Notes: a model not told the origin generated them from the letters alone. A stretch of 64,000 bases of DNA from an uncultured delta proteobacterium (GCA_963771175.1 CAVYSY010000044.1:139722-203721), one strand, 5' to 3'; counted from the first letter of the stretch, positions 19,621-37,083 are shown. Made by a program: numbers and translations.

Positions 19621-19786
19621 GCGGGAGACCTGCTTGCGCGAAGGGTTCCGGGACTGCGAGCAGAAGCTACCAACCGGGCATGCCCGGGTCGTGTTCCCGA
19701 CGAGCGGAAGTGACGGCGAAAAAGCCCGGGGCTGAACGAAGCGGGGGGAGGACGTCGGGCAGGAGACCGCTCGGGCGGGGCGGTGC

Positions 19787-20290: not shown

Positions 20291-20352
20291 GGAAGACGAT
20301 GGCTCCATCAACCAGCCGGTCCAAATCTCCATCAACAAGCGTGCGCGGTAAC

Positions 20353-20575
20353 ACTCAAGCGTACTCCGCGACCTTTGGGACATGCCTCAACGCGCCAGGC
20401 CCTGCGGGAGTTGCGCGAGCAGTACCGTGCTTTCGTCTCGACATTCCGAGAAGCCGCAGCGCGCTGGCGGCAGGGGGACTTCTCGGCCCGCCTCCCCCTC
20501 TACGCCTTCCCGCCGCGCACCTTGCCCGGTCACGTTGCTCGAGTTCTTTGACACCATTCCCGACACCATTCCCGA
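20353..20575 (+). mobile_element. RAYT 3' fragment with right end and GACACCATTCCC x2
   Basis: Near-identical to 36844-37050; TCGAGTTCTTTGACACC at 20539-20555. Confidence 0.9.
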
Positions 20576-20784
20576 GACCGCCGCCCATCCAACTCCTCCT
20601 CGCCCCGCCGGAAGGTGCGCTCGGCCCCACCCCATACGCAACTCCTTGAAAACGCGCGCACGCATTCCCGGCCCGATTGAACGCCATACATTTCCGGTGC
20701 CAGCCATCGCATATCTGGATTCGCACAGCCGGAGGCGATGGCGGCGTAGCTTCACCGGGCACACCCACCATGGAGGTAGCGACC

Positions 20785-20897
20785 CTCCACCAGGAGCGCC
20801 GCGGCACCGATGGCAGCCCCCCCGCGTCCATGCGAAGCTGCGCGCACGGGGCCGTCGCATCTCCGAGAAGCGCGTCGCTCGCCTGATGCGGCAGGGG
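20785..20897 (+). mobile_element. IS3-family transposase fragment
   Basis: HQERRGT.GS.PRVHAKLRARG...KRVARLMRQ, an IS3 OrfB HTH segment. Confidence 0.65.
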
Positions 20898-20937
20898 GCC
20901 GGCAGCACGCGGAAGGCGCCCGGAATAAATACGTTAT

Positions 20938-21030
20938 GCCGGATTAAAGGCACCTCCAATGGGCTAGATAAACCAGTTTACCGGATTAAAAAGCGCTGCT
21001 GGCGCGATTTAAATCCGTTATAAAGGATTA
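20938..21030. promoter_or_regulatory. Putative operator/promoter of hipA-HTH operon
   Basis: AT-rich; CCGGATTAAA twice, inverted TTTAAATCCG, and GGATTA just before the ATG. Confidence 0.5.
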
Positions 21031-21031
21031 T

Positions 21032-22318
21032 ATGGAGCTCCATCTCCAGGCGCTGATCGACGGGTCGTGGCAGCGGGCAGCGCTGCTTGAGTTCCCTACG
21101 GTCAGGGAGGATCGACGCGGAGGATGCACCTTCGAGTACGAGCACGAGTACCTGCTTCGGTGGATCGCCGACCCGCCGCCGCTTGCGGCGGTAAGTCTCA
21201 ATCTACCGGTCGAGTTCGGCCCCAAGGTCTGGCGCCGTTGGCCGGCGTTCCTCGATGACCTGCGACCGATGGGGAGTGCCCGTGGCTGGTGGCTGCGGCG
21301 ACTGGACCTCGCGGATGAGGCGGCGAGTGACTTCGAAATCCTGCGGAGTGGCACGATTGCGCCGGTCGGCAATCTTCGAATCGAGGAGTCGGTTCCCGCG
21401 AAGAAGGAACCTCCCAAGCGGTTCCCTCGCCAGGTCGTCATCGACCGCGAGAACGCCTTCATCGAGTACGCCGCCAAGGCCGGCGCGCAGGTCGGAGGCG
21501 CGACAGGTGCCGGCGGCGATTCGCCGAAGCTCCTGCTCCGCTGCGACGCCGCGGAGCAGGTGTGGATCGACGTCTGGCAGGATGACCCCGCCTGTCCAGA
21601 TCGGCATTACCTCGTCAAGTTCGCGCGCAGCCGCAGCGAACGCGACCGAAACATCCTTCGGTCGGAGTACGTGTATTACAAAGCGCTCGCAGAGCTCGGA
21701 GTCGAAACCATTGCGCAAGAAGGGCTCGCGCTTCACGAAGGCCCCTCGGGCCCGAGCCTCTGGCTTCCCCGCTTTGACGTCGCGCGCCGAGACGGCCGCG
21801 AAATCCGGTACGGACTCGAGTCCCTCTACTCGCTGCTCAAGGCTGAGCCAGGCTCTTTCCAGAAGCATCAAGCGGCATTGAGTGCACTGAAAGACGTCGT
21901 TCCCGCGACGGTTTGGCCGACGGTGCGCCTCGAGTACCTGAAGCGCGACCTGCTGAATCTGGTGTTCGGCAACTCGGACAACCACTGCAGGAACATCGCC
22001 GTGCTCAAGACGGACAGTACCGTCCGCCTCGCGCCCATCTTCGACTTCGCGCCGATGAGGATGGACCTCGAAGGAATCACCCGCACCACGACGTGGGAAG
22101 GGTACGAAGCCGGCGGAGATGTCGACTGGGATGGGCTCCTTCGAAGCTTCGGCCCAGATGAGACGTCGTTGCGCGAGGGCCTCCACGACCTCGCTTTGCG
22201 CCTTCGCAATCTCCGCGAGCTCCTCGCGAACCTCAGGCTGCCGGATGAAACGCTGAATTTCGCGGGGCTGGACTTCCGCAGCATCGAGAAGCGCCTCCGC
22301 ACGTGGAGTCTCCTATGA
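21032..22318 (+). CDS. hipA: HipA-family Ser/Thr kinase toxin
   Basis: N-terminal coupling domain (SLNLP, PAFLDDLRP), GATGAGGDSPK loop, LVKF, LPRFD, GNSDNH.RN, LAPIFDF. Confidence 0.88.
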   Translation: MELHLQALIDGSWQRAALLEFPTVREDRRGGCTFEYEHEYLLRWIADPPPLAAVSLNLPVEFGPKVWRRWPAFLDDLRPMGSARGWWLRRLDLADEAASDFEILRSGTIAPVGNLRIEESVPAKKEPPKRFPRQVVIDRENAFIEYAAKAGAQVGGATGAGGDSPKLLLRCDAAEQVWIDVWQDDPACPDRHYLVKFARSRSERDRNILRSEYVYYKALAELGVETIAQEGLALHEGPSGPSLWLPRFDVARRDGREIRYGLESLYSLLKAEPGSFQKHQAALSALKDVVPATVWPTVRLEYLKRDLLNLVFGNSDNHCRNIAVLKTDSTVRLAPIFDFAPMRMDLEGITRTTTWEGYEAGGDVDWDGLLRSFGPDETSLREGLHDLALRLRNLRELLANLRLPDETLNFAGLDFRSIEKRLRTWSLL

Positions 22319-22707
22319 AGCGCGCCGACGTCGCCCGATTGACTGCGCTCGAACGCAAGGCGCTGCTGGAAGAGCTCGCTGCTATGGTCGCCACCGGAGA
22401 GTTCGGCCTCGGAGACGCCTCGCGCATCCTCCGCAGCACGATGCTGGGGATGGACCGGAAGACCTTCGCACAAGCCGTGAGGCTCTCCACCAGCGTCGTA
22501 GCGACGCTCGAGGACGATCCGAACGCGAACCCGACGCTCGAAACGCTCAACAAGGTCTTCGCGCCGTTCGGCGGAAAGGTCGCGTTGTCGTTTCCCCGCC
22601 TCGAAGAGCCACCGCCGCCCGACGATGCAGAGAGGCAGCGGCGAGAGATGCTCCGCGCCGCGCTCGCGAAGAGCAGGCGGCAGCGGCGGCGCTCGACAGA
22701 GTCGTAA
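22315..22707 (+). CDS. XRE-family HTH protein, putative antitoxin
   Basis: LRSTMLGMDRKTFAQAV...LEDDPNANPTLETLNKV; ATGA overlap with hipA. Confidence 0.8.
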   Translation: MKRADVARLTALERKALLEELAAMVATGEFGLGDASRILRSTMLGMDRKTFAQAVRLSTSVVATLEDDPNANPTLETLNKVFAPFGGKVALSFPRLEEPPPPDDAERQRREMLRAALAKSRRQRRRSTES

Positions 22708-22734
22708 GACCAGTCACGGCTCCGCTCATCACGG

Positions 22735-22797
22735 CCCGGGAAGGGAAGGGTGTCAAGGGAAGGGTGTCAAGGGAAGGGTGTCAGACACTTTGTACGG
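22735..22797 (+). repeat. RAYT-associated array GGGAAGGGTGTC x3 ending in AGACACTTTGTACGG
   Basis: Same units as the 33297 and 35577 arrays. Confidence 0.9.
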
Positions 22798-23081
22798 CGC
22801 GTCGTCATCCAGGGCTTCAGCGGAGAGTTCCTCGGGGAGTACGAAGTGGACCCCGTGTTCCAGGAGGACATCCGCATCCTCCCGTCACCGTGAGGGCTCC
22901 GCGAAGGGACATGTAACCGCGCACCGTCCTCATCACCGACGACCACGCCCTGGTGGCCCCGTCAACGTTCCCGTCCATAGGAAGCACGCGGCGGGTGCCA
23001 ATGAGCTTCGGAATGCTCGACCAAATTCGGGAACCTTTGGCTCCTCCCGGTGTCTCTGCGGCGACACTCGAGAGGGGGAGC

Positions 23082-25355
23082 ATGGCCATCACACCGGTTC
23101 GCCATCCGTCAGGACCCATTTTTCTAGTCGCACTCATCATGGGACTCGCCGCACGTGCGGCTCCCACGGCCGAGGGCACGCCGGAGCGCGTGGAGGCCAC
23201 TCCCGATGCGCGGCTCGCGGCGCTCTGTCGCGTCTGGGGCGCGGTGGAGCACTTCCATCCGGCCTTGCCCTCTCGGGACATCGACTGGGACGCGGCGCTG
23301 GTGGAGACGGCGCCCCGGGTGATGGAGGCCCGAAACCCCGAAGCCCTCTCCGATACCCTCCAGGGGATGCTCGGCAGGCTCGGGGACCCTGTGACGCGGG
23401 TCGCCCGGCAGGCACCGGCCGCCCCCGCTCCGAGCGCGCAGAGCACGCCCCTCTCTCGGCAGGTGGGGGAGGTGCTCGCGGTGGACCTCGACCGCCGCTT
23501 CGGGAACTTCCAGGAGCTCTACATGGCGGTGTCCTCGCTGGGCCCCGAGCTCGCGAAGGCCCGCCGCGTCGTCGTGGACCTCCGAGCCAGTGGCGCCGAC
23601 GAGGCCATCTGGATGGACCAGGCCCTGGGTTTCCTCGCGGGCGCGCTGCCCTCTGAACCGGTGACCGGCCCGGGTGAGCGGTACCTCCAGCACTCAGGCT
23701 ACCGGATACAATTCGGCGCCACCTCGGGTGGCTACGGCACCACGATGGACCTGAAGCTCGCCGAGGGCTTCGCCTCCGCGCCCGGTGCCCCCCAGCGCTC
23801 CGTGGCCTTCCTCGTCAACGCGCGCACTCCGCTCGTCCCCCTGCTGCTGGCCATGGTGGGCTCCTCCTCCCGCACCTTCCTCGTCGCGCAGGGCGCGCTC
23901 GACGAGAGCTCCGCCGTCAAGACGATGGAGTTGCCCCTCGCCGGTGGCCACCGCGCCGTCGTGCGCACCTCCGAGCTCGTCTTCCCCGAGGGCTCGCAAG
24001 GCCTGCGCGCGGATGTCACCGTGCCCGCGAGTGCCGACGAGGGAGAGCTGGGCCCCGCCTTCCAGGCCGCGCTGAAGCTCGTCCGCACGGGCAAGGCGAA
24101 GACCCCCGCGCGCCATGCCGCACAGCGGGCCGGATTGCCCACGTGGCACGCGGAGGAGACCTACGCGGAGCAGGAGTACCCCTCCCCCGGCCTCAGGACC
24201 CTGGCCGTCTGCCGCTTCTGGAACGTCATGCACTACTTCCACCCGGACCCGAAGGCGCTCGGCGACTGGGACGCGGTGCTGCCCGAGTTCCTCCGCAAGG
24301 CTCGCGAGGCCGCGGATGCCCGCGCATACGCGCTCACGCTCTATGAGCTGTCCGCCCGCGTCCATGACGGCCACATCTTCCTGGCCGAGCGCGGCACCGT
24401 CTTCCGCACGCTGGGCGAGGCGACCGCCCCCATCCTCCCGCGCTACGTGGAGGGCCGCCCCCTGATGACGGAGCTCCTCGATGTCAACGTGACCCGTGAG
24501 GCCGGGCTCGTTGTCGGGGACGAATTGCTCACCGTGGATGGACAGCCCGTGGAGGAGCGGGCCGCTTTCCTCCGGCGCCACCTCGCGGCCTCGACGCCCG
24601 CCGCCCTCTCGTTGAAGGTGGCGGAGATGCTGCTCGCCGGGCCGGATGGCTCGCAGGTCTCGTTGCGCGTCAGGTCCGTGGATGGCGGGCAGAAGGAGGT
24701 GAAGCTGCTCCGCTCCCGCGCCTTCCTCGCGCCCTTCCGGCAGCCCTCCGCCGAGGGCGAGCCCTACCGGACGCTCAAGGGCAACCTCGGCTATGTCGAT
24801 CTGCGGCTGCTCCGGGTGGAGCAGATCGACTCGATGCTGGAGGCCCTGCAGGGGACTCGCGGCATCATCTTCGACATGCGCGGCCAGCCCCAGAGCACGG
24901 CGTGGGAGCTGGCGCGCCGCCTCAACGTGAAGGGCACCGAGCACGCGGCGGTGGTTGCCCGGCCCCTGGTGTCCTCCGGCCAGCGCCGGGAACTGCGGTT
25001 CTCCGACACGGAGCTCTCCCGAGCCCAATCCCCTCGCTACACCGGCCGTACCGTGATGCTCGTGGACGAGCGTGCCTCCAGCCAGGCCGAGTACACCGCC
25101 ATGATGCTCCAGGCCGCCGCGGGCACCCGGCTCGTGGGAGCGCCCACCGCGGGTGCCGTGGGAGACACCACCAACGTGTGCCTGCCTGGGGCCGTCTGCG
25201 TCCTCTTCACGGGCCAGCTCCTGCTCTACCCGGATGGCCGTCCGGTGCAGGGCGTGGGCGTCACTCCAGACGTGGAGGTACGGCCCACCGTGCAGGGAAT
25301 CCTCGCGGGACGAGACGAGGTCCTCGAGCGGGCGATCTCAACGCTTCGCGAGTGA
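23082..25355 (+). CDS. S41 family (tail-specific) peptidase with PDZ-like region
   Basis: VWGAVEHFHP, DGH, IIFDMR, SQAE, GAPTAGAVG, GVGVTPDVEV. Confidence 0.85.
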   Translation: MAITPVRHPSGPIFLVALIMGLAARAAPTAEGTPERVEATPDARLAALCRVWGAVEHFHPALPSRDIDWDAALVETAPRVMEARNPEALSDTLQGMLGRLGDPVTRVARQAPAAPAPSAQSTPLSRQVGEVLAVDLDRRFGNFQELYMAVSSLGPELAKARRVVVDLRASGADEAIWMDQALGFLAGALPSEPVTGPGERYLQHSGYRIQFGATSGGYGTTMDLKLAEGFASAPGAPQRSVAFLVNARTPLVPLLLAMVGSSSRTFLVAQGALDESSAVKTMELPLAGGHRAVVRTSELVFPEGSQGLRADVTVPASADEGELGPAFQAALKLVRTGKAKTPARHAAQRAGLPTWHAEETYAEQEYPSPGLRTLAVCRFWNVMHYFHPDPKALGDWDAVLPEFLRKAREAADARAYALTLYELSARVHDGHIFLAERGTVFRTLGEATAPILPRYVEGRPLMTELLDVNVTREAGLVVGDELLTVDGQPVEERAAFLRRHLAASTPAALSLKVAEMLLAGPDGSQVSLRVRSVDGGQKEVKLLRSRAFLAPFRQPSAEGEPYRTLKGNLGYVDLRLLRVEQIDSMLEALQGTRGIIFDMRGQPQSTAWELARRLNVKGTEHAAVVARPLVSSGQRRELRFSDTELSRAQSPRYTGRTVMLVDERASSQAEYTAMMLQAAAGTRLVGAPTAGAVGDTTNVCLPGAVCVLFTGQLLLYPDGRPVQGVGVTPDVEVRPTVQGILAGRDEVLERAISTLRE

Positions 25356-25481
25356 GACGCGATGTACCGGGGCCCTGGACGTGGTGACAGCGACGTGCCC
25401 GCGGTGCGGGATTTCAGGAAGGCTTTGGGCCCACGAATCGCGCGCTGACCGGCTCTGGCGGTCGAGCAGGTGTTCCGGCAC

Positions 25482-25516
25482 CCCGAAAAGGTGTCCCGAA
25501 AAGGTGTCAGACACTT
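25482..25516 (+). repeat. RAYT-associated variant units CCCGAAAAGGTGT x2 + CAGACACTT
   Basis: Core GGTGTCAGACACTT shared with the arrays. Confidence 0.75.
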
Positions 25517-25522
25517 CGTCTC

Positions 25523-25561
25523 GGCCCCCCTCAACAGGGCTCCCATTCGTCTTATGCTTCG
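25523..25561 (+). repeat. ~39-bp repeat shared with 41663-41701, putative IS91-family end
   Basis: GCCCCCCTCAACAGGGC(T/C)CCCATTCGTCTTATGCTTCG in both places. Confidence 0.7.
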
Positions 25562-25566
25562 CGCGC

Positions 25567-26484
25567 ATGAGACTCGTGCTCCTGGCGTCGCTCGGTTTGC
25601 TCCTCGGCTGTGCCGTTCCCCACAAGAACGCGCGGTACTCGAACTCCGCACAGGAGCAGGGAGACGCGCGGGTCGGTCAAATCCTCTCGTCCGAGTGGTC
25701 GTTCGAGACGTCCTCCTTCTGGCTCGAGGGGCCCGAGGGGCTCATCTTGATCGACACGCAGTTCCTTCCGTCCGCGTTGCGGAAAGGGATTGCCTACGCC
25801 GAGGGGGCCACGGGCAAGAAGGTCAAGCTGGCCATCGTCCTGCACCCGAACCCCGACCGTTTCAACGGAACGGCCTGGCTCGAGAAGCGCGGAGTCCCGG
25901 TCGTCACCTCCGAGCAGGTCCGCGAGCGCATTCCCGAGGTCCACGACAGATGGGCTCCCGCCCTCTTCGAGAAGTACCAGGCGGGCGGGTACCCCTGGAG
26001 CGTCGTGCTCCCCGACAGCTTCGGAAGCAGCACGACGGAGCTGAGCGCGGGGGGCCTCACCGTGAAGGCGCACGTGCTTGGCGGCGGGTGCAGCCCGGCC
26101 CATGTGGTCGTCGAGTGGGAAGGGCATCTCTTCGTCGGGGACCTGGTGGCGAATGGCACGCACAGCTGGTTCGAGAATGGCCGGACCGACGCGTGGCTCG
26201 AGCGCCTGGACGAGCTGCGCGCGTTGCACCCGAAGTGGATCCACCCGGGGCGCGGCTTCACGGACGGGCCCGAGCTGCTCGACCGGCAGACGGACTACGT
26301 CCACACCGTGGTCGAAGCGGTCGCGGCGGAGCACCCACGGGGCCGGCCCACTCCGGAAGCGTTCGCACGCATCACGGAGCGGGTGAACCAGCGCTACCCC
26401 GACCACCACTACCCCGCCTTTCTGCCGATGGTCCTGCGCGCGGAGTGGGCGCGCCAGGCCGCCCTCCTCGCCGATTCACGGTAG
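25567..26484 (+). CDS. MBL-fold metallo-hydrolase lipoprotein (atypical HPNPDR motif)
   Basis: LLGC lipobox, LIDT, LHPNPDRFNG, LFVGDL, IHPGRG. Confidence 0.8.
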   Translation: MRLVLLASLGLLLGCAVPHKNARYSNSAQEQGDARVGQILSSEWSFETSSFWLEGPEGLILIDTQFLPSALRKGIAYAEGATGKKVKLAIVLHPNPDRFNGTAWLEKRGVPVVTSEQVRERIPEVHDRWAPALFEKYQAGGYPWSVVLPDSFGSSTTELSAGGLTVKAHVLGGGCSPAHVVVEWEGHLFVGDLVANGTHSWFENGRTDAWLERLDELRALHPKWIHPGRGFTDGPELLDRQTDYVHTVVEAVAAEHPRGRPTPEAFARITERVNQRYPDHHYPAFLPMVLRAEWARQAALLADSR

Positions 26485-26510
26485 GCACCGGCGGGCTGCC
26501 ATGAGCCCGA

Positions 26511-26531
26511 GGGAAGGTGTCAAAGAACTCG
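26511..26531 (+). repeat. Isolated RAYT left end
   Basis: GGGAAGGTGTCAAAGAACTCG. Confidence 0.8.
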
Positions 26532-26593
26532 TTCAGCGGCCGATGACGTGACGCACACGCTCGACCCCTCACACAGGCGTGCGCGTCCGCTTC

Positions 26594-27406
26594 CTACTCC
26601 CCGAGCGATTGGGGCGGCGGTTTGGCGCTGAAGACGGGCGCGTAGCACTTGCCCTGGTGCTCGAAGAGCCCATCCGGGCACGGGGCCTTGAGGGCGTGCT
26701 CCATCCAGCAGCCGCCCACGAGTTCCACGTCGACGTATTTCCTGCAAGGGGGGCGCTTTTGTCCCTTGAAGGCCTCGCGCGGCAGAGAACGGGCGAGTGC
26801 GGGCACTCCCGCGTCCGGGGTATCCATGGCGCTGGAGAATGAGTACGGATTCGCGTCCGCCGTGAGCACCTCGTCGCTCGTGAGCACCTCATCGCTCATG
26901 AGCGCGGGCGGTGTGATTGCCAGGGACTCCGGGCCGCTCGGCGGTGGAGCCTCGAAGGCCAGATGCACCAGCGCGATGAGCAGGACGCCCACTGTGGCGG
27001 CGCTCACCACGCCCAACCCCAGGTGCCACCGGAGGCGGGGCGCGTGGGAGTCGGATACGGCGCGGACCATGCGCCGCACCTCCTCGAGCACACCGTCCAA
27101 CGTGAGCAGCAGCGACTCCGCCGACTGCCTGTCCTGGGCCCTGGCCCAGTCGGTGTGCTCCACCTCCATGGCGGAGTAGCCTCGAGAGGCCCAGGAGCCG
27201 AGGAACACCCGCCAGTGCTTCCCTGGTGCCTTTGCCTCTTGGGCGGCGTGCTTGCGCACCAGGGCCGTGGCCCCGCTCGTCTCGTGCGTGGCCAGATAGA
27301 GTTCCTCCTGGAGGTCAGTGGACTGCTGTACCTGCTCCTGAATCAGGTACGGCCCCAAGCGTTCCGGTTCCTCCCCGCTCGTTTCGAGCTTCTTCTCCTC
27401 GTCCAT
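26594..27406 (-). CDS. Hypothetical membrane protein with Cys-rich C-terminus (FKGQKRPPC...GGCW...CY.P)
   Basis: One TM segment; C-terminal motif recalled from myxobacterial kinase-associated families; GAGGAG RBS. Confidence 0.7.
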   Translation of the reverse strand: MDEEKKLETSGEEPERLGPYLIQEQVQQSTDLQEELYLATHETSGATALVRKHAAQEAKAPGKHWRVFLGSWASRGYSAMEVEHTDWARAQDRQSAESLLLTLDGVLEEVRRMVRAVSDSHAPRLRWHLGLGVVSAATVGVLLIALVHLAFEAPPPSGPESLAITPPALMSDEVLTSDEVLTADANPYSFSSAMDTPDAGVPALARSLPREAFKGQKRPPCRKYVDVELVGGCWMEHALKAPCPDGLFEHQGKCYAPVFSAKPPPQSLGE

Positions 27407-27584
27407 GCGTGCTCCTCACGAGCCTCCGCGCCTGCTGGAGGCCAGAGGCGGGTGTTCGCATGAACCACGCCCGACATCCAGGAGGTACTCGGTTCGTCAG
27501 GTGGGGGCCTACTCACAGGTGCCCTGGCGCGTTCACCTCCGCGCTGGGACACAGTTGGGCGCCCCACCTCGCGGCCTCCTTCGG

Positions 27585-27638
27585 CGGGAAGGGTGTCCAG
27601 CAAGGGGGGCCGGGAAGGGTGTCAGACACTTTGTACGG
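27585..27638 (+). repeat. RAYT-associated array (GGGAAGGGTGTC x2 + AGACACTTTGTACGG)
   Basis: Direct sequence match to array units. Confidence 0.88.
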
Positions 27639-27821
27639 CCTTTGCAATGGCCGGTTCTCGATACCCATCGGTGAGAAACCTACCCGCCGTTGGGCCCTCC
27701 CGGGCCGTGTGGCTCGCCACTGCTGGGGCCGTCCTGAACGTGCAGTCGTTCCCGCTGCGGTTCCTGTCCGGGGCTGCAGAAAGGGTCGGAAGAGGAGAGA
27801 CACGGCGGTGCGAGCACTCTG

Positions 27822-28111
27822 GGGAGGTGGAGGCAGGCGCGCAGGGGAAGCCTGTCATGGGAGCGCGAGCGGTGCAGAGCAGCCCAGCACGGCCCGAGCG
27901 TCTCAAGCGTACTCCGCGGACCTTTGGGACATGCCTCAACGCGCCAGGCCCTGCGGGAGTTGCGCGAGCAGTACCGTGCTTTCGTCTCGACATTCCGAGA
28001 AGCCGCAGCGCGCTGGCGGCGGGGGACTTCTCGGCCCGCTTCCCCCTCTACTCCTTCCCGCCGCGCACCTTGCCCGGTCACGTTGCTCGCGTTCTTTGAC
28101 ACCATTCCCGG
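27822..28111 (+). mobile_element. RAYT 3' fragment with right end
   Basis: Matches 36752-37052 (EVEA..QGKPVMGARAVQ...PGHVARVL) plus GTTCTTTGACACCATTCCCG. Confidence 0.9.
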
Positions 28112-28357
28112 CGGTCACACGTGCGCCCCCTGACGTGTCAGTGACGTGTCAGCGACACGTCAGGAGGCACCCCTGAGTCGCCCGCTCTCCTCGTGCCCAA
28201 GGGGAAGCGCACGCGTTCCGCTTGGAACCGGTTTCAGTCGGATCCTCGGGCAGACCTTCGCACGAGGAGAGAGCTGCCGGATCCCTACCGAGATCGGCCC
28301 TGGCTGGCCGCGTTTGCACCAGGCCCCGCGCAACTCGCTACCCGAGGAGATGGAGAG

Positions 28358-29397: not shown

Positions 29398-29716
29398 CAG
29401 ACCGCCAGGGGACCGGCCCCGGGGCTCCAGGTTCTTCGGAACCTGGGGCCTTTTGGTTCCCTCCGGACCGGGCTGCACACCCTGGGGTGCATCAGGAGCA
29501 CCCCATATGACCACCGTGAAAGTCGGTTCCTCCAAGCAGTGGTAGACGACCTACGCCGGTATGAGCTCGGAATAGGGGACAACGACCCTCTCCCACCTCC
29601 AGAGCATCCGTATCCGGAGTACGTGGCGGAGCTCGAGAGGGCGAAGATGCACCTCGCAAACAATCCCAGGCTGGCGCCCGCGGTCGAGCTTCTCAAGCGA
29701 TTCGTCAGTTTGGGAG

Positions 29717-30066
29717 CCCGAGATGGTGTCAAAGGACTCGAACCGCAGGACTCGAGCCAGAACGAGACTCGGCGTGGACGGGTGAACCTACCGGCCCCCA
29801 GGTCATTCTGAGGACTTGGGGTTGGCCCACAGGGAGCATCCGGCCTGGCGGCGCGTACGCAGGGGATGGGCTGGCCGTTGGGGCATGCCTCCGCGCGCCA
29901 GTCGCTGAGGGAGTTGCGCGAGCAGTACCGTGCCTTCGTCGCGGCGTTCCAAGAGGCGGCGGCTCGGTGGAGGCGGGGGGACTTCTCGGCGAGCTTTCCT
30001 CTCTACTCCTTCCCGCCGCGTGTCGTGCCGGGTCGTGTCGCGCGAGTCCTTTGACACCCTCTCGGG
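29717..30066 (+). mobile_element. Non-autonomous (MITE-like) RAYT derivative with both ends
   Basis: GGTGTCAAAGGACTCG 29725-29740 and CGAGTCCTTTGACACC 30043-30058; mini-ORF 29866-30054 fuses MGWPL to the transposase C-terminus. Confidence 0.9.
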
Positions 30067-30108
30067 GGTGGGGAGGGCGACGCGCCACACCGCCTGAGCT
30101 CGTCAATC

Positions 30109-30705
30109 CTAGATGGGCACGCTCTCGGGGCGACTGATGAAAAGGGCATCGAAGAGGGTGGTGTGGGGCGGTTCCTTGGGCTCGACGATGAGCGGGACGG
30201 GAGTGCGGGCGAGCTCGCGAGGAAGGGCGGTCACCCCGAACGTGGCCTCGAGCTTCCTGGCGACGACCTCGGCGGGAGCCTGCATCTCGGGTGGAAGCGA
30301 CTCCAGGAAGACCCGCTCTTCAACGCGCTGCCTGCCGCTGTAGTGGAGGTGCAAGCCATAGATGGCGTAGACAGGCGCCAGGATGCTGACACAGCCGACG
30401 ACGCACCAGACAACTGGCTGCGGTGGTTTCTCCACTTTCGGGTACACGGCACAACGAAAAGACGCATTACACGTGGACGTGAAGTTCCCGACATTCAGTC
30501 CTGGCAGCGCTGCCTGGAGGTCATCCACGAACGCGTCCCACTGGTCCATCTTCTTGCGCTCTTGCACCCACAGCGAGAGGAAGCGCTCGGCCTCGGGGCT
30601 GTTCTCGCGCCTGAGATCGAAGTCCTTGTCCGCACGGTAGTAGTTGTGGACGAGGGCAAGCAAGGACTCCGCCGAGAGGGGAATAGGGCTAGAATTCAAT
30701 GACAT
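30109..30705 (-). CDS. Hypothetical protein, possible immunity partner of upstream lipoprotein
   Basis: Clean ORF overlapping the upstream gene; VVGCVSILAPVY segment. Confidence 0.6.
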   Translation of the reverse strand: MSLNSSPIPLSAESLLALVHNYYRADKDFDLRRENSPEAERFLSLWVQERKKMDQWDAFVDDLQAALPGLNVGNFTSTCNASFRCAVYPKVEKPPQPVVWCVVGCVSILAPVYAIYGLHLHYSGRQRVEERVFLESLPPEMQAPAEVVARKLEATFGVTALPRELARTPVPLIVEPKEPPHTTLFDALFISRPESVPI

Positions 30706-31168
30706 GGGGCGTTGTTTCCTTGTCGCACAGGGTCGTGACTTGGGAGCCGAGTACGGCACGATTCAGAATCGTGTGAAACGTACTCTTGAAGTCCTGACAC
30801 ACGAGGCCGGGGCTCGGAGAATTGGGGAAGCCAAGCACGATTCTTCCGGCCTCGTTGGCGCAATCAGCGGCGATGCGCTGCGCAAGTGCTGTGGAGATGG
30901 ACCCATCCGTTTGGGTCGCCAGGGGCATCTCGACTCCAAACTTGCAGAAGAAGGTGTTCCAGGTGGCGGTGTTGACGATGGGGACGTGCAGGCATGCGGC
31001 ACGCCATCCGCCCGAGCCTGATTTGGGTTTCTTGACGACCGTGACGAACTGAAAATGGTGGGGCTGGTAGTGGTTGATGCTGCACCCCGCGAGGAGTGGA
31101 AGCATGACGACGAACAGGTTCCGGAGCGGGAATGCACGTCTTCGCGCGGGTTGCCCTGAAATGCTCAC
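30689..31168 (-). CDS. Cys-rich lipoprotein, hypothetical (start uncertain)
   Basis: LLAGC lipobox; FQFVTVV, GGWRAAC; lower GC than the core genes. Confidence 0.6.
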   Translation of the reverse strand: MSISGQPARRRAFPLRNLFVVMLPLLAGCSINHYQPHHFQFVTVVKKPKSGSGGWRAACLHVPIVNTATWNTFFCKFGVEMPLATQTDGSISTALAQRIAADCANEAGRIVLGFPNSPSPGLVCQDFKSTFHTILNRAVLGSQVTTLCDKETTPHVIEF

Positions 31169-31316
31169 GGTGTCACCTCGGCCCAGCGGGGATGGTTGCC
31201 CGCGAGGGTAGCAACGTTCATGCGACCCGCGCCCCCGTCTTCCGCCGACTGCGGGCGCGCGTTCTGGAGCGGACGGTCACGGTATGGCCCAACGGGGATG
31301 TGGAGGTGGACTCGAA

Positions 31317-31438
31317 CCCGAGACGGTGTCAAAGGACTCGAACCGCAGGACTCGAGCCAGAACGAGACTCCTCGCGCCAGGCACTGCGGGAGTTGCGCGA
31401 GCAGTACCGTGACTTCGTCGCGGCGTTCCAAGAGGCGC
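31317..31438 (+). mobile_element. RAYT left end fused to short internal transposase segment
   Basis: GGTGTCAAAGGACTCG at 31325, identical to the 29725 left end for ~44 bp, then RQALRELREQY coding. Confidence 0.85.
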
Positions 31439-31503
31439 GACGAGCTTTCCTCAACCTCGCGTCTCCGGTGAAGAATCGGGCGTCCGCTCACATCGGAGAC
31501 GAC

Positions 31504-33252
31504 ATGCTGATGTTCTCGTTGGTGGCCGTGGTGCTCGCGGCCGAGCCGCCCCCCACCTCCACGCCGCTCTACCCGCCGGCGGAGGCCATCGCCGACGCGC
31601 TCTCCGGGCCGCTGGTCCCGATGGTCGGGGATACTGGCTTCGGTCCCAACGAGCGGCTCCCGGACTGCTTCTACCGAAACGACCGTGTCATCGTCATCAA
31701 CCGCTACTGCGGCAAGCGGGAGATCAACACCACCGGCATCCAGATCATGCACCCCGAGCGGGGCGTCCTCTACTTCTACGCGGAGGCGAGCGCGCCGATC
31801 AGCTCGCTCACCCGCGAGGACTACGAGCAGTGGCGCATCGAGGTGCGCGACCCGCTGCCCGGACTCCGCGTCGACCAGTCGCTGGCGGAAGTGCTGCAGT
31901 GGATGCACCGGAGAACGCGCGAGGCGCAGCAGGTGTGTTGGACCGGCTTCGGCTCGCCCGGCGGCGTCCCCACCGGGTGCCACTACAAGACGCCCGAGCT
32001 CAAGCAGGCCTGGATGGACGCTCATGACGCCCTGCTCAAGAGCCCGCCCCCTGGCTGGTACGAGCTCGTCCGGGAGATGCGCGGACTGATCGGCAAGAAG
32101 CCGCCGCCGGTGAAGGCCCCGCCCGCCGCCGACACCGCCGGACCCGGGCCCGCGCGCATCGTCGTCCGGGTGTTCGAGTACTTCACGCACCAGCCGGTGG
32201 TGGGCGCCCGCGTCCTCTTCCGCGAGCTGGACGGCGCCGGGGAGCGCGTGGGAGTGACCGACGCCAGCGGCAAGGTGGCGGTGCGGACGCCGAGCACCCG
32301 CTTCGAGCCCGTGAAGGTCGAGCTCGAGGGGCTGCTCCCGCCCGAGGAGCTGCGGCCCATCTGGAGCGCGTTCAAGACGCTCGACCCGACGCGCCACGCG
32401 CAGGGGAAGGACGAGGTCCGCTGGGAGCTTCCGGTCGTCCGCCGGGCGTGGCTGGAAGCGAACATGAAGGTCCGGACCCGGGAGCAGGCCGACGCCGTGG
32501 CCGCCGACTGGGGGAGCGAGTGCGGGCCGGGCGGTCCCAGCGCGGTCGAGTTCCGCGAGGGCGCCTGGCACTACACCTTCTCGTGCCTGGAGATGTACGT
32601 CGACCCGTGGAAGGGGAAGGGCGGCGGGCGCAAGCTCCAGCCGGCTCCTCCCAGCGCGGCCCCGCTCTACCCGCCGGCGGAGGCGCTGGCGGACGCGGTG
32701 TCCGGTCCGCTGCGGCATGTGGGGACCACCCTCTGGTACGGCCGCTACGGGATTCCTTCGTGCATCTACCGGAACGAGAAGGTCTTCGTCATCAACTCGT
32801 ACTGCACGCTGAAGGAGCTCAACCGCACCGGGGTCATCGTCATCCACCCCGAGCGCGGCGTGGTGCAGCTCAAGGCGCGCGGCGTCCAGGACAAGCCGGT
32901 CAGCACGCTGAGGCGCGCGCAGTACGCCGAGTGGGGGTTCTCGTCGACGGATGGCCAGCGCGGCCTCACCCTCGATGCGAGCGCGGACGCGCTGGTCGCC
33001 TGGGAGGAGCGGCGCCACCGCTACTACCGAAATCCCGGCTGCGGGGCGGGGCAGGCCGGCGCGTCCTCCAAGATGCGCGGCAAGTGCGAGGAGAAGACGC
33101 CAGGGTTCGAGGCCTGGTGGCGGGGCGTGTATCCCCCCATTCTCGAGGCGCCGCCCGAGAGCTGGTACGCGCTCGTGAAGGACCTGCGCCAGCGCGCGCG
33201 CAAGGACGGGAAGCCGGACCCGCGGCTGGCGAAGGGCGCCCCGGAGGAGTGA
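31504..33252 (+). CDS. Secreted protein with two homologous Cys-containing domains
   Basis: Signal-like N-terminus; PLYPPAEA.ADA.SGPL, C.YRN..V.VIN.YC and HPERGV each occur twice. Confidence 0.75.
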   Translation: MLMFSLVAVVLAAEPPPTSTPLYPPAEAIADALSGPLVPMVGDTGFGPNERLPDCFYRNDRVIVINRYCGKREINTTGIQIMHPERGVLYFYAEASAPISSLTREDYEQWRIEVRDPLPGLRVDQSLAEVLQWMHRRTREAQQVCWTGFGSPGGVPTGCHYKTPELKQAWMDAHDALLKSPPPGWYELVREMRGLIGKKPPPVKAPPAADTAGPGPARIVVRVFEYFTHQPVVGARVLFRELDGAGERVGVTDASGKVAVRTPSTRFEPVKVELEGLLPPEELRPIWSAFKTLDPTRHAQGKDEVRWELPVVRRAWLEANMKVRTREQADAVAADWGSECGPGGPSAVEFREGAWHYTFSCLEMYVDPWKGKGGGRKLQPAPPSAAPLYPPAEALADAVSGPLRHVGTTLWYGRYGIPSCIYRNEKVFVINSYCTLKELNRTGVIVIHPERGVVQLKARGVQDKPVSTLRRAQYAEWGFSSTDGQRGLTLDASADALVAWEERRHRYYRNPGCGAGQAGASSKMRGKCEEKTPGFEAWWRGVYPPILEAPPESWYALVKDLRQRARKDGKPDPRLAKGAPEE

Positions 33253-33296
33253 CCGGGGCTTTCTTTGCTGGCATCGCACCGTGCGCGGCGAGGTCG

Positions 33297-33631
33297 CCCG
33301 GGAAGGGTGTCAGACACTTTGTACCCTCCGGGAAGGGTGTCGCGGGAAGGGTGTCAGACACTTTGTACGGCCTCCACGCCGGGAAGGGTGTCCGCGGGAA
33401 GGGTGTCGGGAAGGGTGTCAGACACTTTGTACGGGCCACCCTCTCGGCGACGTGTCCGACTTGATGCCCTTGCCCCGGAAGTGGTGTCAAAGAACTCGAC
33501 GCGAGGCTGGAACGCGAACGGTCCACGGCCTGGACGGGTGAAACTCCCAGGAAGGGTGTCAGACACTTTGTACGGGCCACCCTCTCGGCCCGGGAAGGGT
33601 GTCGGGAAGGGTGTCAGACACTTTGCACGGG
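33297..33631 (+). repeat. Large RAYT-associated modular array including a left end (33483-33499)
   Basis: ~9 GGAAGGGTGTC units and several AGACACTTTGTAC modules. Confidence 0.92.
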
Positions 33632-33915
33632 CGTGTACCTCGAGGGGCCGCGCGGCCTCTCCACCGACCGGGCGCCCTGCTCGGGCGGCCCCTGTCAGCG
33701 GCCCTCCTCGGCCCCTCCGCTCCAGCCCTCACCCTCAACACGGCCTCTATTCCGCCTATGCGCTCTGTGACCCCTGCCCGGGCGACAGTGCGCGCATCGA
33801 ACGTGGAGGGGCTGTTCTCATGGGTTGGCATGCCCGAGCGAGACTCGCCTACCGCTGGTGTTCCTTTGCCGGCGCGTTGCCGGGTGGGAAGCGTGCATGG
33901 GATGCTCATTCGAGA

Positions 33916-35553
33916 ATGAGCGCCCACCGTCTCCTCACCTGCCTGCTGCTGGCCTTGCCGCTGCTCGCCTGCCAGGCGCATCAGGCTCCACTCGCTCCGG
34001 GCGACTCCCTGCCAGTCGAAAGGTTCAATCAGCTCATCAACGAGAGGCCCCGTTGTGCCTCGGTGGTGGAGTGCACCTCCATTGCCAGCCGCGAGCCGGC
34101 GCTGTTCTCGTTCATCCTGGACCTGACGCTACCCGAGCTGCCGCTCCCCAGACTGCTGGATGGGTTCGAGTACCAGCATGAACGCCCGGCGGTGACGCGC
34201 ATCGTCCATGCGCAAGTGTGGACGCTCCTGGAGTCCTCCCTGAAGGAGGCCGCCGCGCATCCCTCCCGGCAGGTCGTGCCGTCCGAGCTGATGGAGCGCA
34301 TGTTCGTGCTCGCTGAGCAGGAGCTGCGATCTCCGGGACCGGAGCGGTTCCCGGTGATGAAGTTGCTGAAGGCGCTGGCGGAGTTCCCCCAAGGTCGCGC
34401 GTGGCTCGTGCAGTGGTGCTTCTCGGGGGAGGATGCGGTGGCGGTCGCCGCCAGTCTCGTCCTCGTGGAGCTCGAGCCCGAGCCCACCACGGCGAAGGAC
34501 TCCGCGGTCTCCTCCCGAGCCATCGAGGTCATCTGGCGGTGCTTCCTCGTGCAGCGGCCCCAGGGCTCCTGTCTGCCGGAGCTGGCACCGCCCCATCCGT
34601 TCTCGGAGCGCATCACCCAGGCCGTCCTGGCCCTGCCCGTGTTCCACTCCCGGCTCATCGCACTCATCGAGACGGACGCCGAGCAGGGCTCCCTGTACCC
34701 GGGGGACCTCGACCTTTACGAGGTGCTCGTGCGCGCCCCGCTGCTCGAGGAGAAGCTCCTGGCCTGGTCCGAGCACCCCTCTCCCACGGTCGCCGGTCTC
34801 GCGAGTGACAGGGTCGTCCGGCGGCGTCGGGACCCCGGCGGGAGCGAGTGGCCGCGCGTCCGGCGTTTCTTGCTGCGGTACGCGGCGAGCGGTAGGGCTT
34901 TCGTCTCCCTGGCCACGGCCAGGCTGCTCGGTCACGAGGGCGAGTTGTCCGCGGAGGAGGTGGCGCAGGTGATCGCCCTTTCCCGCTCTTCTTCGAAGGA
35001 CGTCCGTCTGGCGAGCATTCATCTCCTGGTGCGGCTGACGCGGGAGCATGGCTCGGCCCGCCTGGCTGTTCTCGAGGTGCTCCAGCGCGATGAGGTGGGG
35101 CTGGTGACGGAGGCGATTCGGCGCCTCGTCGAGCTGTCCTCGTCTCGCGAGACGCACGCCCCGGACTGGTACTCGCGTACCGTGGCCGAGTGGTTCCTGA
35201 AGGTCCCGGCCCATCGGTTCCGCGAAGAGGCCTGGCGGGTCCCCCTCTGGTGGGCACTCGAGCAAGTCGAGGTCGTGTTCCGGCGGCGCTTCAGGCCCTT
35301 TGTGAAGACGGAGCCGGTTCTCGCTATCTGCGGCGGCGATCTCGGCGTGAATGAGCTGGAGGAACAGGCACGGAAGAATCTGCTCGCATTCGGGGTCGAA
35401 CAGACGCCGTCCCCCTCCGCGTGGGAACTGGCGGAGCGCCGTAGGAGCGACGAGCGGGCCGAGGCGCGGGAAGTCGACACGCTGCTGCGCGCGCGCGAGC
35501 GGTTCTCGCGGTTCCATGATTGGCGAGAGGGGCGAGGCTCCGGCTGGCCGTGA
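33916..35553 (+). CDS. Hypothetical alpha-helical (HEAT-like) lipoprotein
   Basis: LLAC lipobox; Leu-rich helical repeats such as DVRLASIHLL. Confidence 0.6.
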   Translation: MSAHRLLTCLLLALPLLACQAHQAPLAPGDSLPVERFNQLINERPRCASVVECTSIASREPALFSFILDLTLPELPLPRLLDGFEYQHERPAVTRIVHAQVWTLLESSLKEAAAHPSRQVVPSELMERMFVLAEQELRSPGPERFPVMKLLKALAEFPQGRAWLVQWCFSGEDAVAVAASLVLVELEPEPTTAKDSAVSSRAIEVIWRCFLVQRPQGSCLPELAPPHPFSERITQAVLALPVFHSRLIALIETDAEQGSLYPGDLDLYEVLVRAPLLEEKLLAWSEHPSPTVAGLASDRVVRRRRDPGGSEWPRVRRFLLRYAASGRAFVSLATARLLGHEGELSAEEVAQVIALSRSSSKDVRLASIHLLVRLTREHGSARLAVLEVLQRDEVGLVTEAIRRLVELSSSRETHAPDWYSRTVAEWFLKVPAHRFREEAWRVPLWWALEQVEVVFRRRFRPFVKTEPVLAICGGDLGVNELEEQARKNLLAFGVEQTPSPSAWELAERRRSDERAEAREVDTLLRARERFSRFHDWREGRGSGWP

Positions 35554-35576
35554 CGAGTGGCACTCCGCGGGCGGGT

Positions 35577-35960
35577 CCGGGAAGGGTGCCGGGAAGGGTG
35601 CCCGGGAAGGGTGCCAGACACTTTGTACGGGGACACTTTGTACGGGCCACCCTCTCGGCGACGTGTCCTCGGCGACGTGTCCGACTTGATGCCCTTGCCC
35701 CCCGGGAAGGGTGTCCGGGAAGGGTGTCAGACACTTTGTACTCCGGGAAGGGTGTCCGGGAAGGGTGTCTCCGGGAAGGGTGTCAGACACTTTGTACGGG
35801 GAAGGGTGTCGGGGAAGGGTGTCAGACACTTTGTACGGGGATACTTTGTACGGGCCACCCTCTCGGCGACGTGTCCTCGGCGACGTGTCCCCGGGAAGGG
35901 TGTCAGACACTTTGTACGGGCCACCCTCTCGGCGACGTGTCCGACTTGATGCCCTTGCCG
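35577..35960 (+). repeat. Large RAYT-associated modular array upstream of the transposase
   Basis: ~11 GGAAGGGTG(T/C)C units plus GACACTTTGTACGGG and CTCGGCGACGTGTC modules. Confidence 0.92.
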
Positions 35961-35965
35961 GAAGT

Positions 35966-37045
35966 GGTGTCAAAGAACTCGACGCGAGGCTGGAGCGCGA
36001 ACGGTCCACGGCCTGGACGGGTGAAACACCCTGTCTGCTCGTCTTTCCAAGCACTTGAGGGCTGGCCCACGGGGTGCATTCGGCCTCGCACCGTACGAGG
36101 GGGAGGGGATGGGCTGGCCGTTGAGGATGTTCCAGGAGGAGGGCTACTACTTCGTCACGTCCAGGTGCTTCCAGGGACGGCTGCTGCTGCGTCCCAGCGC
36201 AGAGGTGAACGAGGTGGTGGGAGGCGTGCTGGCGCGAGCCGTCCAGCAGAGCGCCGGCACCGTGCGACTGCACGCCTTCACCTTCGCCTCCAACCATTTC
36301 CACCTGCTGGTGTGGGCTCGGGGAGCAGCTCTCGCCTCCTTCATGCAGTACCTGCGCGCCAACCTCTCCAAGAAGGTAGGGAGGCTGGTGGACTGGAGGG
36401 GTGGTTTCTGGGAGCGGCGCTACTCAGCGGAGCCGGTGTTGGACGACACGGCGTTGGTGGGGCGACTGCGCTACATCCTCGCCCATGGAGTGAAAGAGGG
36501 CCTGGTGGAGAGAAGCACCGAGTGGCCGGGCCTCACGAGCCTGCCGCAGTTGCTGGGACCGGCGCGGCGGCTGTTCCGATGGTTCAACTGGACGAAGCGC
36601 TGGGGCGAACGGAGGCGCCAGGACATGGCCGCGGCGCAGGGGCGTTTCGCGCAGGAGTGGGCCGAGCCGGTGGAGTTGGAGGTGGCGCCGCTGCCTTGCT
36701 GGAAGAGCTCGAGCGAAGAGGAGAGACAGCGCGCGGTGCGAGCACTGCTGCGGGAGGTGGAGGCCGAGGCCCGTGCGCAGGGGAAGCCTGTCATGGGAGC
36801 GCGAGCGGTGCAGGAGCAGCACCCGCATACCCGGCCCGAGCGTCTCAAGCGTACTCCGCGACCTTTGGGACATGCATCCACGCGCCAGGCCCTGCGGGAG
36901 TTGCGCGAGCAGTACCGTGCTTTCGTCTCGACATTCCGAGAAGCCGCAGCGCGCTGGCGGCAGGGGGACTTCTCGGCCCGCTTCCCCCTCTACTCCTTCC
37001 CGCCGCGCACCTTGCCCGGTCACGTTGCTCGAGTTCTTTGACACC
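35966..37045 (+). mobile_element. RAYT element delimited by 17-bp perfect inverted repeats
   Basis: GGTGTCAAAGAACTCGA 35966-35982 / TCGAGTTCTTTGACACC 37029-37045. Confidence 0.9.
36109..37041 (+). CDS. REP-associated tyrosine transposase (Y1/HUH, IS200/IS605 superfamily)
   Basis: YYFVTSRC, SNHFHLL HUH motif, [32 protein letters not shown]; intact frame. Confidence 0.9.
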   Translation: MGWPLRMFQEEGYYFVTSRCFQGRLLLRPSAEVNEVVGGVLARAVQQSAGTVRLHAFTFASNHFHLLVWARGAALASFMQYLRANLSKKVGRLVDWRGGFWERRYSAEPVLDDTALVGRLRYILAHGVKEGLVERSTEWPGLTSLPQLLGPARRLFRWFNWTKRWGERRRQDMAAAQGRFAQEWAEPVELEVAPLPCWKSSSEEERQRAVRALLREVEAEARAQGKPVMGARAVQEQHPHTRPERLKRTPRPLGHASTRQALRELREQYRAFVSTFREAAARWRQGDFSARFPLYSFPPRTLPGHVARVL

Positions 37046-37083
37046 ATTCCCGGGACACCATTCCCGGCGACACCATTCCCGGG
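37040..37083 (+). repeat. Right-end iteration GACACCATTCCCG x3
   Basis: Read directly from the sequence. Confidence 0.9.

Follow-up and report, generated by a model that had tools for sequence, protein, structure and literature searches.

Ends of a RayT-like Y1/HUH element are rearrangement breakpoints in an accessory island of an uncultured delta proteobacterium and probably help to shuffle its genes

Introduction

This paper concerns a 64,000-nucleotide stretch of DNA from an uncultured delta proteobacterium (GCA_963771175.1, CAVYSY010000044.1:139722-203721; hereafter the window, with positions counted from its first letter) and an accessory island within it that is studded with the ends of a RayT-like Y1/HUH transposable element. 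Several described systems bear comparison with this element. REPIN-RAYT systems are reportedly the subject of work by Bertels and Rainey in 2011 (PMC3116915). IS608, of the IS200/IS605 kind, has TTAC as its target and cleavage site, and IS91/ISCR elements and Helitrons use two-tyrosine (Y2) enzymes, accompanied in Helitrons by a helicase domain. A further class, the TIRtrons, which encode terminal inverted repeat (TIR)-associated tyrosine transposases (TIRYT), was described by Di Nocera et al. (2013, PMC3733652), and its subclasses were treated by Quentin et al. (2018, PMC6006769), to judge from the sections of these two papers that were available to us.

Here we report that the ends of the element in this island are real rearrangement breakpoints and more than passive litter, and we argue that they probably help to shuffle genes. 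We analyzed the genome under study (G000, a 9.83-Mb assembly of an Archangium-type myxobacterium, on whose contig C44 the window lies) together with relatives G001 to G017, one genome per species, and with X20, a read run assembled as k-mer contigs that is 98 to 99% identical to G000 in shared units. Gene calls came from a crude filter on G+C content at third codon positions (GC3). Among the papers listed by our literature searches, none describes such islands in myxobacteria or gene shuffling by TIRYT ends.

Results

The intact element occupies positions 35966 to 37045 on the plus strand, is 1,080 bp long, and is bounded by perfect 17-bp TIRs (GGTGTCAAAGAACTCGA), 35966 to 35982 matching the reverse complement of 37029 to 37045 at 17 of 17 positions, with GGTGTC at the tip of the repeat. 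Its transposase open reading frame (ORF; 36109 to 37041) encodes 310 amino acids (aa) and ends in a stop codon that lies inside the right repeat. The initial annotation, made from the window alone, had recognized an intact Y1/HUH transposase here, and this identification holds: the protein has the HUH motif NHFHLLV (H63, H65) and the motif RYILAHGVKEGLV (Y122, H126), and an alignment of 18 relatives shows no variation at H63, H65 or Y122. The protein itself scores 21.5 bits against Pfam Y1_Tnp (PF01797), below the cut-off of 23, while all 18 relatives match the family at E ≤ 0.01 (best, 1.6e-6). Against NCBIfam NF047646 (REP_Tyr_transpos) it scores 53 bits over residues 6 to 140, below the equivalog cut-off of 80. 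The nearest database proteins, from Archangium, Cystobacter and Vitiosangium, are just 86% identical and carry the names RayT or transposase in the source.

A single-sequence search against solved structures returned nothing at E ≤ 1, and a profile search placed Escherichia coli TnpA-REP (4er8) first, weakly (E 0.21), with the HUH and tyrosine motifs aligned with EHMHCI and DYIYINPVKHGWV of 4er8. When an AlphaFold model of the transposase (pLDDT 81) was compared with the PDB by Foldseek, the top eight matches were all Y1 transposases, none at E ≤ 0.001; 4er8 again came first (E 6.9e-3, probability 1.00, TM score 0.62 on the target), followed by the ISDra2, IS200 and IS608 transposases. Residues ~145 to 310, a C-terminal extension of ~170 aa, gave no family match.

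We next asked which described system this element resembles most. A classic REP-RAYT system fits less well: the ends are flat 17-bp TIRs with no hairpin (folding of the window's left and right ends is no better than that of shuffles, z = -0.72, -0.46, -0.59 and +0.93), and the NF047646 match falls below its cut-off. The closest published kind that fits is the TIRtron/TIRYT class. As far as the available sections of the original description go (PMC3733652), the two share a RAYT-like Y1/HUH gene bounded by TIRs rather than by REP hairpins, moderately abundant repeats that occur as singles, dimers and groups, and a protein longer than classic RAYTs. Measured against the same sections, the GGGGWSAS motif of most published TIRs was not seen by eye in the ends here (CCGGGAAGGGTGTCAAAG), and this genome has several diverged gene copies, tandemly stuttered ends, co-oriented crowding of ends in a few accessory islands, and rearrangement breakpoints at ends. 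The Y1 HUH motifs, and perhaps the fold of the model, also recall IS200/IS605 elements such as IS608 and ISDra2, and the recurrent break described below, after a fixed short sequence, is comparable to TTAC in IS608; the element differs from them in having true inverted termini, whereas theirs are two like-oriented subterminal hairpins, and in its C-terminal extension.

Arrays of short tandem repeats adjoin the intact element on both sides. Those on the left (35576 to 35965, plus strand) consist of units CCGGGAAGGGTGTC, AGACACTTTGTACGGG and CTCGGCGACGTGTC, and that on the right (37040 to 37083, plus strand) consists of three copies of GACACCATTCCCGG (3.1 copies according to Tandem Repeats Finder [TRF]). 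Each array unit is the outermost 12 to 14 nucleotides (nt) of an end, or sometimes an entire end. Where a unit is truncated, its last letters are precisely GGTGTC, so that a cut is likely at this place, the recurrent break following the C of GGTGTC. According to the part of the source that we could consult, E. coli TnpA-REP joins a cleaved end to any oligonucleotide ending in C (PMC8266576). The arrays expand in place: G000 and X20 have different numbers of end units at 30065 and at 26511 to 26534, and on contig C49 each left array repeats a prefix peculiar to that locus, such as GCTCAG-, GGCCAG- or CACAGCCAG-GGTGTC.

A BLAST search with the element against the whole assembly, together with reading of the sequence, identified nine element-derived loci in the window, the intact one included (20354 to 37083), which represent two subfamilies and comprise solo ends, tandem ("stuttered") end arrays, gene fragments and deletion derivatives resembling miniature inverted-repeat transposable elements (MITEs). 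A 3' fragment of the transposase gene with its right terminal repeat and two tandem copies of GACACCATTCCC lies at 20354 to 20574 (97.3% identical to 36844 to 37066). It is followed by a left-end array of three AAGGGAAGGGTGTC units and then AGACACTTTGTAC at 22737 to 22797 (TRF, 3.1 copies, 100% match), a left-end variant of two CCCGAAAAGGTGTC units and then AGACACTTCGT at 25482 to 25520, and a solo left terminal repeat, GGTGTCAAAGAACTCGT, at 26509 to 26535. A gutted element at 27585 to 28111 has kept a left-end array (27585 to 27638) and a 3' gene fragment with the right end (27789 to 28111; the fragment is 93.5% identical to 36715 to 37053). The second subfamily is represented by a MITE-like internal-deletion derivative at 29716 to 30058, which retains the left end, the first codons, the 3' end and the right end, and by a left end with a 3' scrap at 31320 to 31436, a junction that is present in a longer version in X20. 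Finally, a stack of left-end units at 33297 to 33632 includes the left terminal repeat and the first ~65 bp of the element interior (85.5% identical to 35771 to 36031).

All nine loci have plus-strand polarity (two-sided chance, ~0.004), and all sit between called ORFs, with none interrupting a called cargo ORF in the window. Thus, the coordinates, the uniform polarity, the sparing of cargo genes and the presence of end motifs at almost every unit boundary that had been noted at first sight were all borne out. The extent assigned to the array, 20353 to 37083, stood as far as these loci are concerned and fell short of the island, which continues to about 42760.

To see whether gene content changes at these ends, we compared G000 with X20, interpreting joints only if the shorter side measured at least 30 nt. 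Among the joints listed, eight of the nine that are well anchored touch element-derived sequence. At the joint 22735>31318, a left end like that at 31318 follows after 18 letters of other sequence, and at 30065>20949 a right end with one extra terminal repeat leads directly to the start of a hipA-like unit. The joint 33253>35702 skips an array-plus-gene unit (the large ORF at 33766 to 35553) between two direct-repeat arrays, and 36354>25553 leads from inside a transposase paralogue to the start of a hydrolase gene. The joints 27619>31317, 29979>31441, 31319>29718 and 35924>25525 make up the rest of the eight. The ninth, an opposite-strand joint between 29454 and 33740, lies in an unrelated dispersed repeat. 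Six further joints (20353>26511, 23493>38332, 26534>38314, 26689>27152, 29950>36529 and 19801>20027) were set aside as unreliable, their shorter side being less than 30 nt. Coverage of X1, X2, X3 and X20 has gaps over the S41 peptidase, tandem-repeat, 33766-35553 and WD40 units described below, and absence was therefore counted only where a contig joins across.

Breaks at ends were also seen against other species. Homology to G009 stops at 22735, 2 nt before an array begins, and synteny breaks at every end-bearing junction examined, namely, the nine window loci, C49:30913, C49:34593, two junctions on C6, two on C28 and one on C54. The end-free flank blocks of the window are collinear with G001. 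The three-gene block between the two C49 junctions (C49:30913-34593) occurs in at least 11 of 17 relatives, in at least three kinds of locus, and is without ends in the four loci that were inspected. In G000 the unit C28:139857-142936 is flanked by an end on one side, in G015 on the opposite side. The initial proposal that gain, loss and reordering of cargo break at the ends is therefore borne out by the X20 joints, by the G009 boundary and by the synteny breaks elsewhere.

One unit on C6 carries a piece of a former neighbor. C6:41713-43085, which lies between two end-dimers, includes 51 bp of an aminotransferase gene (the 5' untranslated region plus ATGCG), and no more than 7 nt separate this fragment from a dimer. 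The aminotransferase gene neighbors the same unit in G016 and G017, and its intact copy in G000 is 46 kb away, at C6:88584-89334. Cargo with a truncated piece of an ex-neighbor is a classic signature of element mobilization, and in this respect, as in its HUH chemistry, the system resembles IS91/ISCR elements, Helitrons and composite transposons. It differs from the first three in that the N-terminal domain of the enzyme matches Y1 transposases, with a single catalytic tyrosine aligned and no helicase domain detected by Pfam, and in that its ends are symmetrical inverted repeats without ori/ter asymmetry.

These data bear on the view that the island is passive debris, an ordinary hypervariable region that owes its makeup to horizontal transfer and illegitimate recombination, in which breakpoints and ends coincide through their shared confinement to intergenic DNA and elements accumulate since insertions are tolerated and hops are short. 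Such a view is favored by the finding that cargo is often closer to scattered species than the flanks are (97% identity for the hipA unit in G013 and 94% for the S41 peptidase gene in G001, versus 86 to 87% for the left flank gene), a signature of transfer that needs no element. The relocation of gene units without ends is, moreover, common in this genus, and a polymorphic-toxin locus forms the island border, which has IS3 and other insertion sequence (IS) scraps as well. Against this view stand the indel of joint 33253>35702, which is bounded by two direct-repeat arrays, the truncated aminotransferase gene that abuts a dimer, and the difference between end-bearing junctions, every one of which breaks synteny, and the collinear end-free flanks. 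We consider it unlikely that the pattern arose in this way.

The ends are strongly clustered in the genome. In the window, GGTGTC occurs 84 times, compared with 44.2 ± 6.0 times in 100 shuffles (largest, 56), and the entire assembly has 23 exact copies of the 12-mer GGGAAGGGTGTC, 21 of them in the island (window 22743 to 35893) and all of these on the plus strand. An even genome-wide spread of the motif, the behavior expected of ordinary REP sequences and named in the initial annotation as grounds for refuting its proposal, was thus not seen. The mirror unit GGGAATGGTGTC is found on the minus strand at 20550, 20562, 28098, 37040, 37054 and 37069. With a looser model (up to three mismatches to GGTGTCAAAGGACTCGA), 193 end-like sites were counted in G000 compared with 10 in a reversed-genome control. 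They form 86 clusters, of which 57 consist of a single site and 15 of two, while the largest has 38. The 52-kb contig C49 has 53 sites and C44 has 24 in two clusters, so that two contigs amounting to 2.6% of the assembly contain 77 of the 193 (40%). Of 103 good sites, only 21 are inside crudely called ORFs, which cover 71% of the genome. This local crowding would be consistent with short-range transposition of the element.

The same clustering bears on the comparison with REPINs. About 25 end-dimers of 52 bp, GGTGTCAGACGACTCGT-N18-ACGAGTCCTTTGACACC, are present in G000; the dimer folds into a hairpin of -12.5 kcal/mol that none of 200 shuffles equaled. In forming a hairpin, lying outside genes, flanking a transposase gene and occurring in repeat clusters, the dimers resemble REPINs and REP-containing bacterial interspersed mosaic elements (BIMEs), as these appear in the accessible part of Ton-Hoang et al. 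(2012, PMC3333891). REPINs, as far as the consulted sources describe them, number in the hundreds, are scattered around the genome and are served by a single RAYT, whereas here the dimers are few, the sites are strongly clustered, and two intact and three frameshifted transposase genes are present, the window's own ends being flat repeats. Those two intact and three frameshifted genes, with 13 further fragment loci, make up the element copies in G000. The four long paralogues of the window's transposase gene are ~83% identical to it in DNA and have the same termini wherever an end is present, and three of the four are accompanied by tandem end repeats. The 52-bp dimers of the other cluster on C44 are a private variant that matches the transposase end of their own cluster. 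Directly beyond the right-end arrays of the C49 transposase lies a stretch of ~2 kb (C49:37900-39950) with many copies, 78 to 86% identical, in most genomes of the genus.

End-like sites were found in 12 of 12 same-genus genomes, at 17 to 178 each, and two of eight genomes outside the genus hold one or two. We had considered a donor genome saturated with ends as the source of the island and rejected it on these counts. Among the positions listed, the sites of relatives are also bunched, for example, at 1.497 to 1.580 Mb in G001 and at 65 to 81 kb in G004. Polarity is uniform within clusters, as seen in 9 of 9 window loci, in 18 of 18 loci at 1.50 to 2.14 Mb in G001 and, on C49, in 13 of 15 left-end loci of the b type. 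A replication-strand bias was rejected as the cause of this, there being no pattern with local GC skew in G000 (18 plus-strand and 8 minus-strand loci where C exceeds G; 7 and 6, respectively, where G exceeds C). A link to the replichore was likewise dismissed in G001 (dnaA at 13.52 Mb), where the 18 loci at 1.50 to 2.14 Mb are on the minus strand and six of seven loci at 3.59 to 3.97 Mb are on the plus strand; the two blocks would share a replichore if the terminus lies opposite the origin, and inversions are possible, so this test of polarity is not decisive.

The island itself spans ~19.8 to 42.8 kb of the window, in a region that the presence of parB, parA, mnmE and dnaA marks as that of the origin. 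Because the gene at 16705 to 19777 and the genes from ~42763 onward are only 204 bp to 2.4 kb apart in five of five complete same-genus genomes, some 23 kb are specific to the G000 strain. The left border is a decayed partial duplicate (B', 19798 to 20286, plus strand) of the 5' region of an AHH-nuclease toxin gene (B), 87.6 to 89.2% identical to 42743 to 43484; the right flank holds that toxin gene and an Imm11 immunity gene (Pfam matches to AHH at 43081 to 44055 and to Imm11 at 44239 to 44757). Campbell-type integration is a possible source of the duplication, which we did not adopt: B is a polymorphic-toxin gene, and polymorphic-toxin loci duplicate 5' parts by themselves. Directly 5' of the first transposase fragment, a 50-bp stretch (20305 to 20354) that is 98% identical to sequences on contigs C19, C26, C8 and C5 probably represents one extremity of a different insertion sequence.

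The cargo units between the ends encode varied proteins. The first (20951 to 22735, plus strand), preceded by an IS3-like scrap (20575 to 20950), consists of a gene for a hipA-like kinase (21032 to 22318; HipA_C, 78.9 bits) and a helix-turn-helix (HTH) gene (22303 to 22707). It recurs in different contexts in G013 and in G009 (95% identical), with a right end ~190 nt away in the former and a solo left end 20 nt away in the latter; in X20 it has a right end on one side and a left end on the other. The second encodes an S41 peptidase with a PDZ domain (23027 to 25362, plus strand; Pfam match), homologues of which in G001, G003 (90%) and G015 (86%) occupy other loci without ends; in G003 and G015, the gene lies between stretches of DNA that are contiguous in G000 (C57:168829-168864). 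Next come a metallo-beta-lactamase-fold hydrolase (25555 to 26484, plus strand; Lactamase_B, 43.6 bits) and a 270-aa membrane protein (26594 to 27406, minus strand) of a multicopy family with about nine copies or fragments in G000, several of them within ~100 bp of an end.

The remaining cargo is less readily classified. A protein with internal tandem repeats (28553 to 29545, plus strand) has no Pfam match and an 83% identical homologue in G014 with internal repeat matches, and two small minus-strand ORFs (30109 to 30759 and 30689 to 31168), putative lipoprotein genes in the initial annotation, have no family match and are 90% identical to sequence at another locus in G001. A large plus-strand ORF, its start placed after the element scrap (31480 to 33252), and a second one (33766 to 35553) behind a copy of a dispersed ~140-nt repeat (33625 to 33765) have no Pfam match; the initial annotation took the former for a putative secreted protein and the latter for a putative HEAT-like lipoprotein. 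An X20 contig spans 31441 to 33253 with 19 differences. No end sites are present in the remaining part of the island, 37.1 to 42.8 kb.

Two features of the cargo recur elsewhere. Members of the 270-aa membrane family have a kinase-like N terminus, one transmembrane segment and a cysteine-rich C terminus. Other copies in G000 are at C49:7342-8223, C49:51266-52151, C44:34679-35484, C30:24375-25291 and C54:102685-103591, and the family is multicopy (73 to 80% identical) in every genome of the genus. Copies usually lie ~100 bp to 1.5 kb from a transposon end and are twice divergent beside a transposase gene; its members could travel regularly with the element or be favored as sites of insertion. 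The second feature is the dispersed repeat of ~140 to 165 nt, unrelated to the element, which is present at 33625 to 33765, at 41455 to 41690 and also at 25525 to 25553. It ends in CCTCAACAGGGCYCCCATTCGTCTTATG, the ATG of which is apparently the start of the downstream gene, and it has 24 matches (up to six mismatches) in G000 and dozens of copies, 80 to 89% identical, in each complete relative. It may be a MITE that carries a promoter or leader.

Other parts of the window are noted for completeness. The WD40 gene at 37171 to 38370 (minus strand) begins with ~108 nt that, with the upstream edge (38264 to 38372), are multicopy in relatives at 90 to 94% identity. An IS66-family transposase gene lies at 59311 to 61002 (minus strand), 1.3 kb downstream of dnaA, and more fragments of the RayT-like element are found at 62682 to 62746 and 63780 to 63944.

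Discussion

The reading that we favor begins with an accessory island of ~23 kb in which a TIR-bounded RayT-like Y1/HUH element and its nonautonomous derivatives would have inserted repeatedly and always in the same direction. The outermost 12 to 14 nt of each end would then be multiplied in situ, either by the enzyme or by slippage of replication where the enzyme nicks, so that dense, co-oriented and nearly identical ends could serve as portable recombination sites, and exchange between them would delete, insert and reorder the intervening gene units. Two routes may be envisaged. In one, the host would recombine co-oriented ends through their homology over 50 bp to 1 kb, and incoming DNA of related strains could take part; the other is strand transfer by the HUH enzyme. 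Homologous exchange between ends, or a mixture of it with HUH strand transfer, seems to us the most likely pathway, and we put it forward with some, though not great, confidence.

Several observations weigh against a role of the ends in moving genes. No ends lie beside the cargo homologues in the relatives' loci L001, L004 to L008, L013 to L016 and L022 to L026. Since most cargo homologues in relatives lack ends, units must also move by an end-independent route. The gene at C44:54053-55444 has left the ancestral site of the S41 peptidase gene and shows no end at its new borders, and no end scar was found at the empty ancestral sites at C57:~168.85 kb (S41 gene) and C40:375.1-376.6 kb (C49 operon). 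The transposase ORF is intact in only two of five long copies. There are also reservations about the comparisons themselves: k-mer contigs of X20 stop in repeats, so that joints are visible only near repeats, and 22 further joints exist besides those listed; the arrangement in G000 rests on its assembly, of which the best read run held 0.48 of the sampled words; and the relatives are different species, in which accessory junctions would seldom be conserved in any case.

Movement of single genes is also apparent away from the island. A comparison of C57:164775-168864 with loci L005 and L008 revealed slots the size of a gene that are filled in some genomes and empty in others; their borders coincide with the edges of genes, and no repeat was detected. 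One slot that is empty in G000 holds two genes in G003 and G015, and G000 carries both, separately, on C44. The genus seems often to relocate single genes.

The initial annotation had gone further and proposed an integron-like platform in which the transposase captures cargo at attC-like ends and stacks it next to its own gene. Part of this survives, in that the ends behave as recombination sites; stacking driven by the HUH enzyme would be one way of using them. The likeness to integrons and CALINs (clusters of attC sites lacking an integron integrase) lies in the co-oriented sites between promoter-poor units of 1 to 2.5 kb and in modular gain and loss; the difference is that the sites here are transposon ends and that the units have no site of their own. 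A scan of 42 ORFs or ORF versions from the window matched no tyrosine recombinase or integrase family. The attC analogy finds no support in the cargo, which has no recombination site of its own, in its homologues, which are mostly free of ends within several kilobases, or in the C44:54053-55444 gene, which moved without ends. An integron-like mechanism is disfavored because the cargo is siteless, its borders are variable, units have moved without ends, scars are lacking and the rest of the island is end-free.

A more specific version is that of a dedicated capture platform, an HUH analogue of the integron, in which the RayT-like enzyme itself would use GGTGTC-terminated ends to excise, reinsert and stack units, including arbitrarily cut pieces, the cargo leaving as single-stranded circles or a covalently held end joining arbitrary DNA with a 3'-OH. 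Such a platform could explain the uniform polarity of clusters, which does not follow the replichore in G001, and the position of the unit missing from an X20 joint, immediately upstream of the intact transposase gene. It could likewise explain why the hipA unit of X20 directly abuts a right-end repeat and why the aminotransferase fragment stops within 7 nt of a dimer, and the transfer by TnpA-REP to 3'-C ends, as presented in the available part of PMC8266576, parallels the break after the C of GGTGTC. Yet neither a circle junction nor a tandem cassette with its own site was found, and the borders of the cargo vary by 2 to 20 nt, with no shared motif found among them and no attC model run. The end-free homologues, the end-free 37.1- to 42.8-kb part of the island and the failure of the window's ends to fold into better hairpins than shuffles argue in the same direction. 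We therefore regard transposase-catalyzed capture as a doubtful proposition. If it were true, bacteria would have a third type of gene-cassette system in addition to integrons and ISCR elements, and the TIRYT branch of "domesticated" transposases, for which no explanation has been available, would acquire a function.

Returning to recombination between ends as the favored reading, this genus offers an unusually readable case of what RAYT and TIRYT enzymes may do and of how their repeats may spread. It has several diverged copies of the gene, each with its own local population of ends, and the stutters in these ends mark the likely cut site, while near-identical strains have gained, lost and reordered whole genes at the ends. 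A direct test is thus possible of whether an HUH family, or the co-oriented litter of its ends, drives modular shuffling in very large, plastic genomes.

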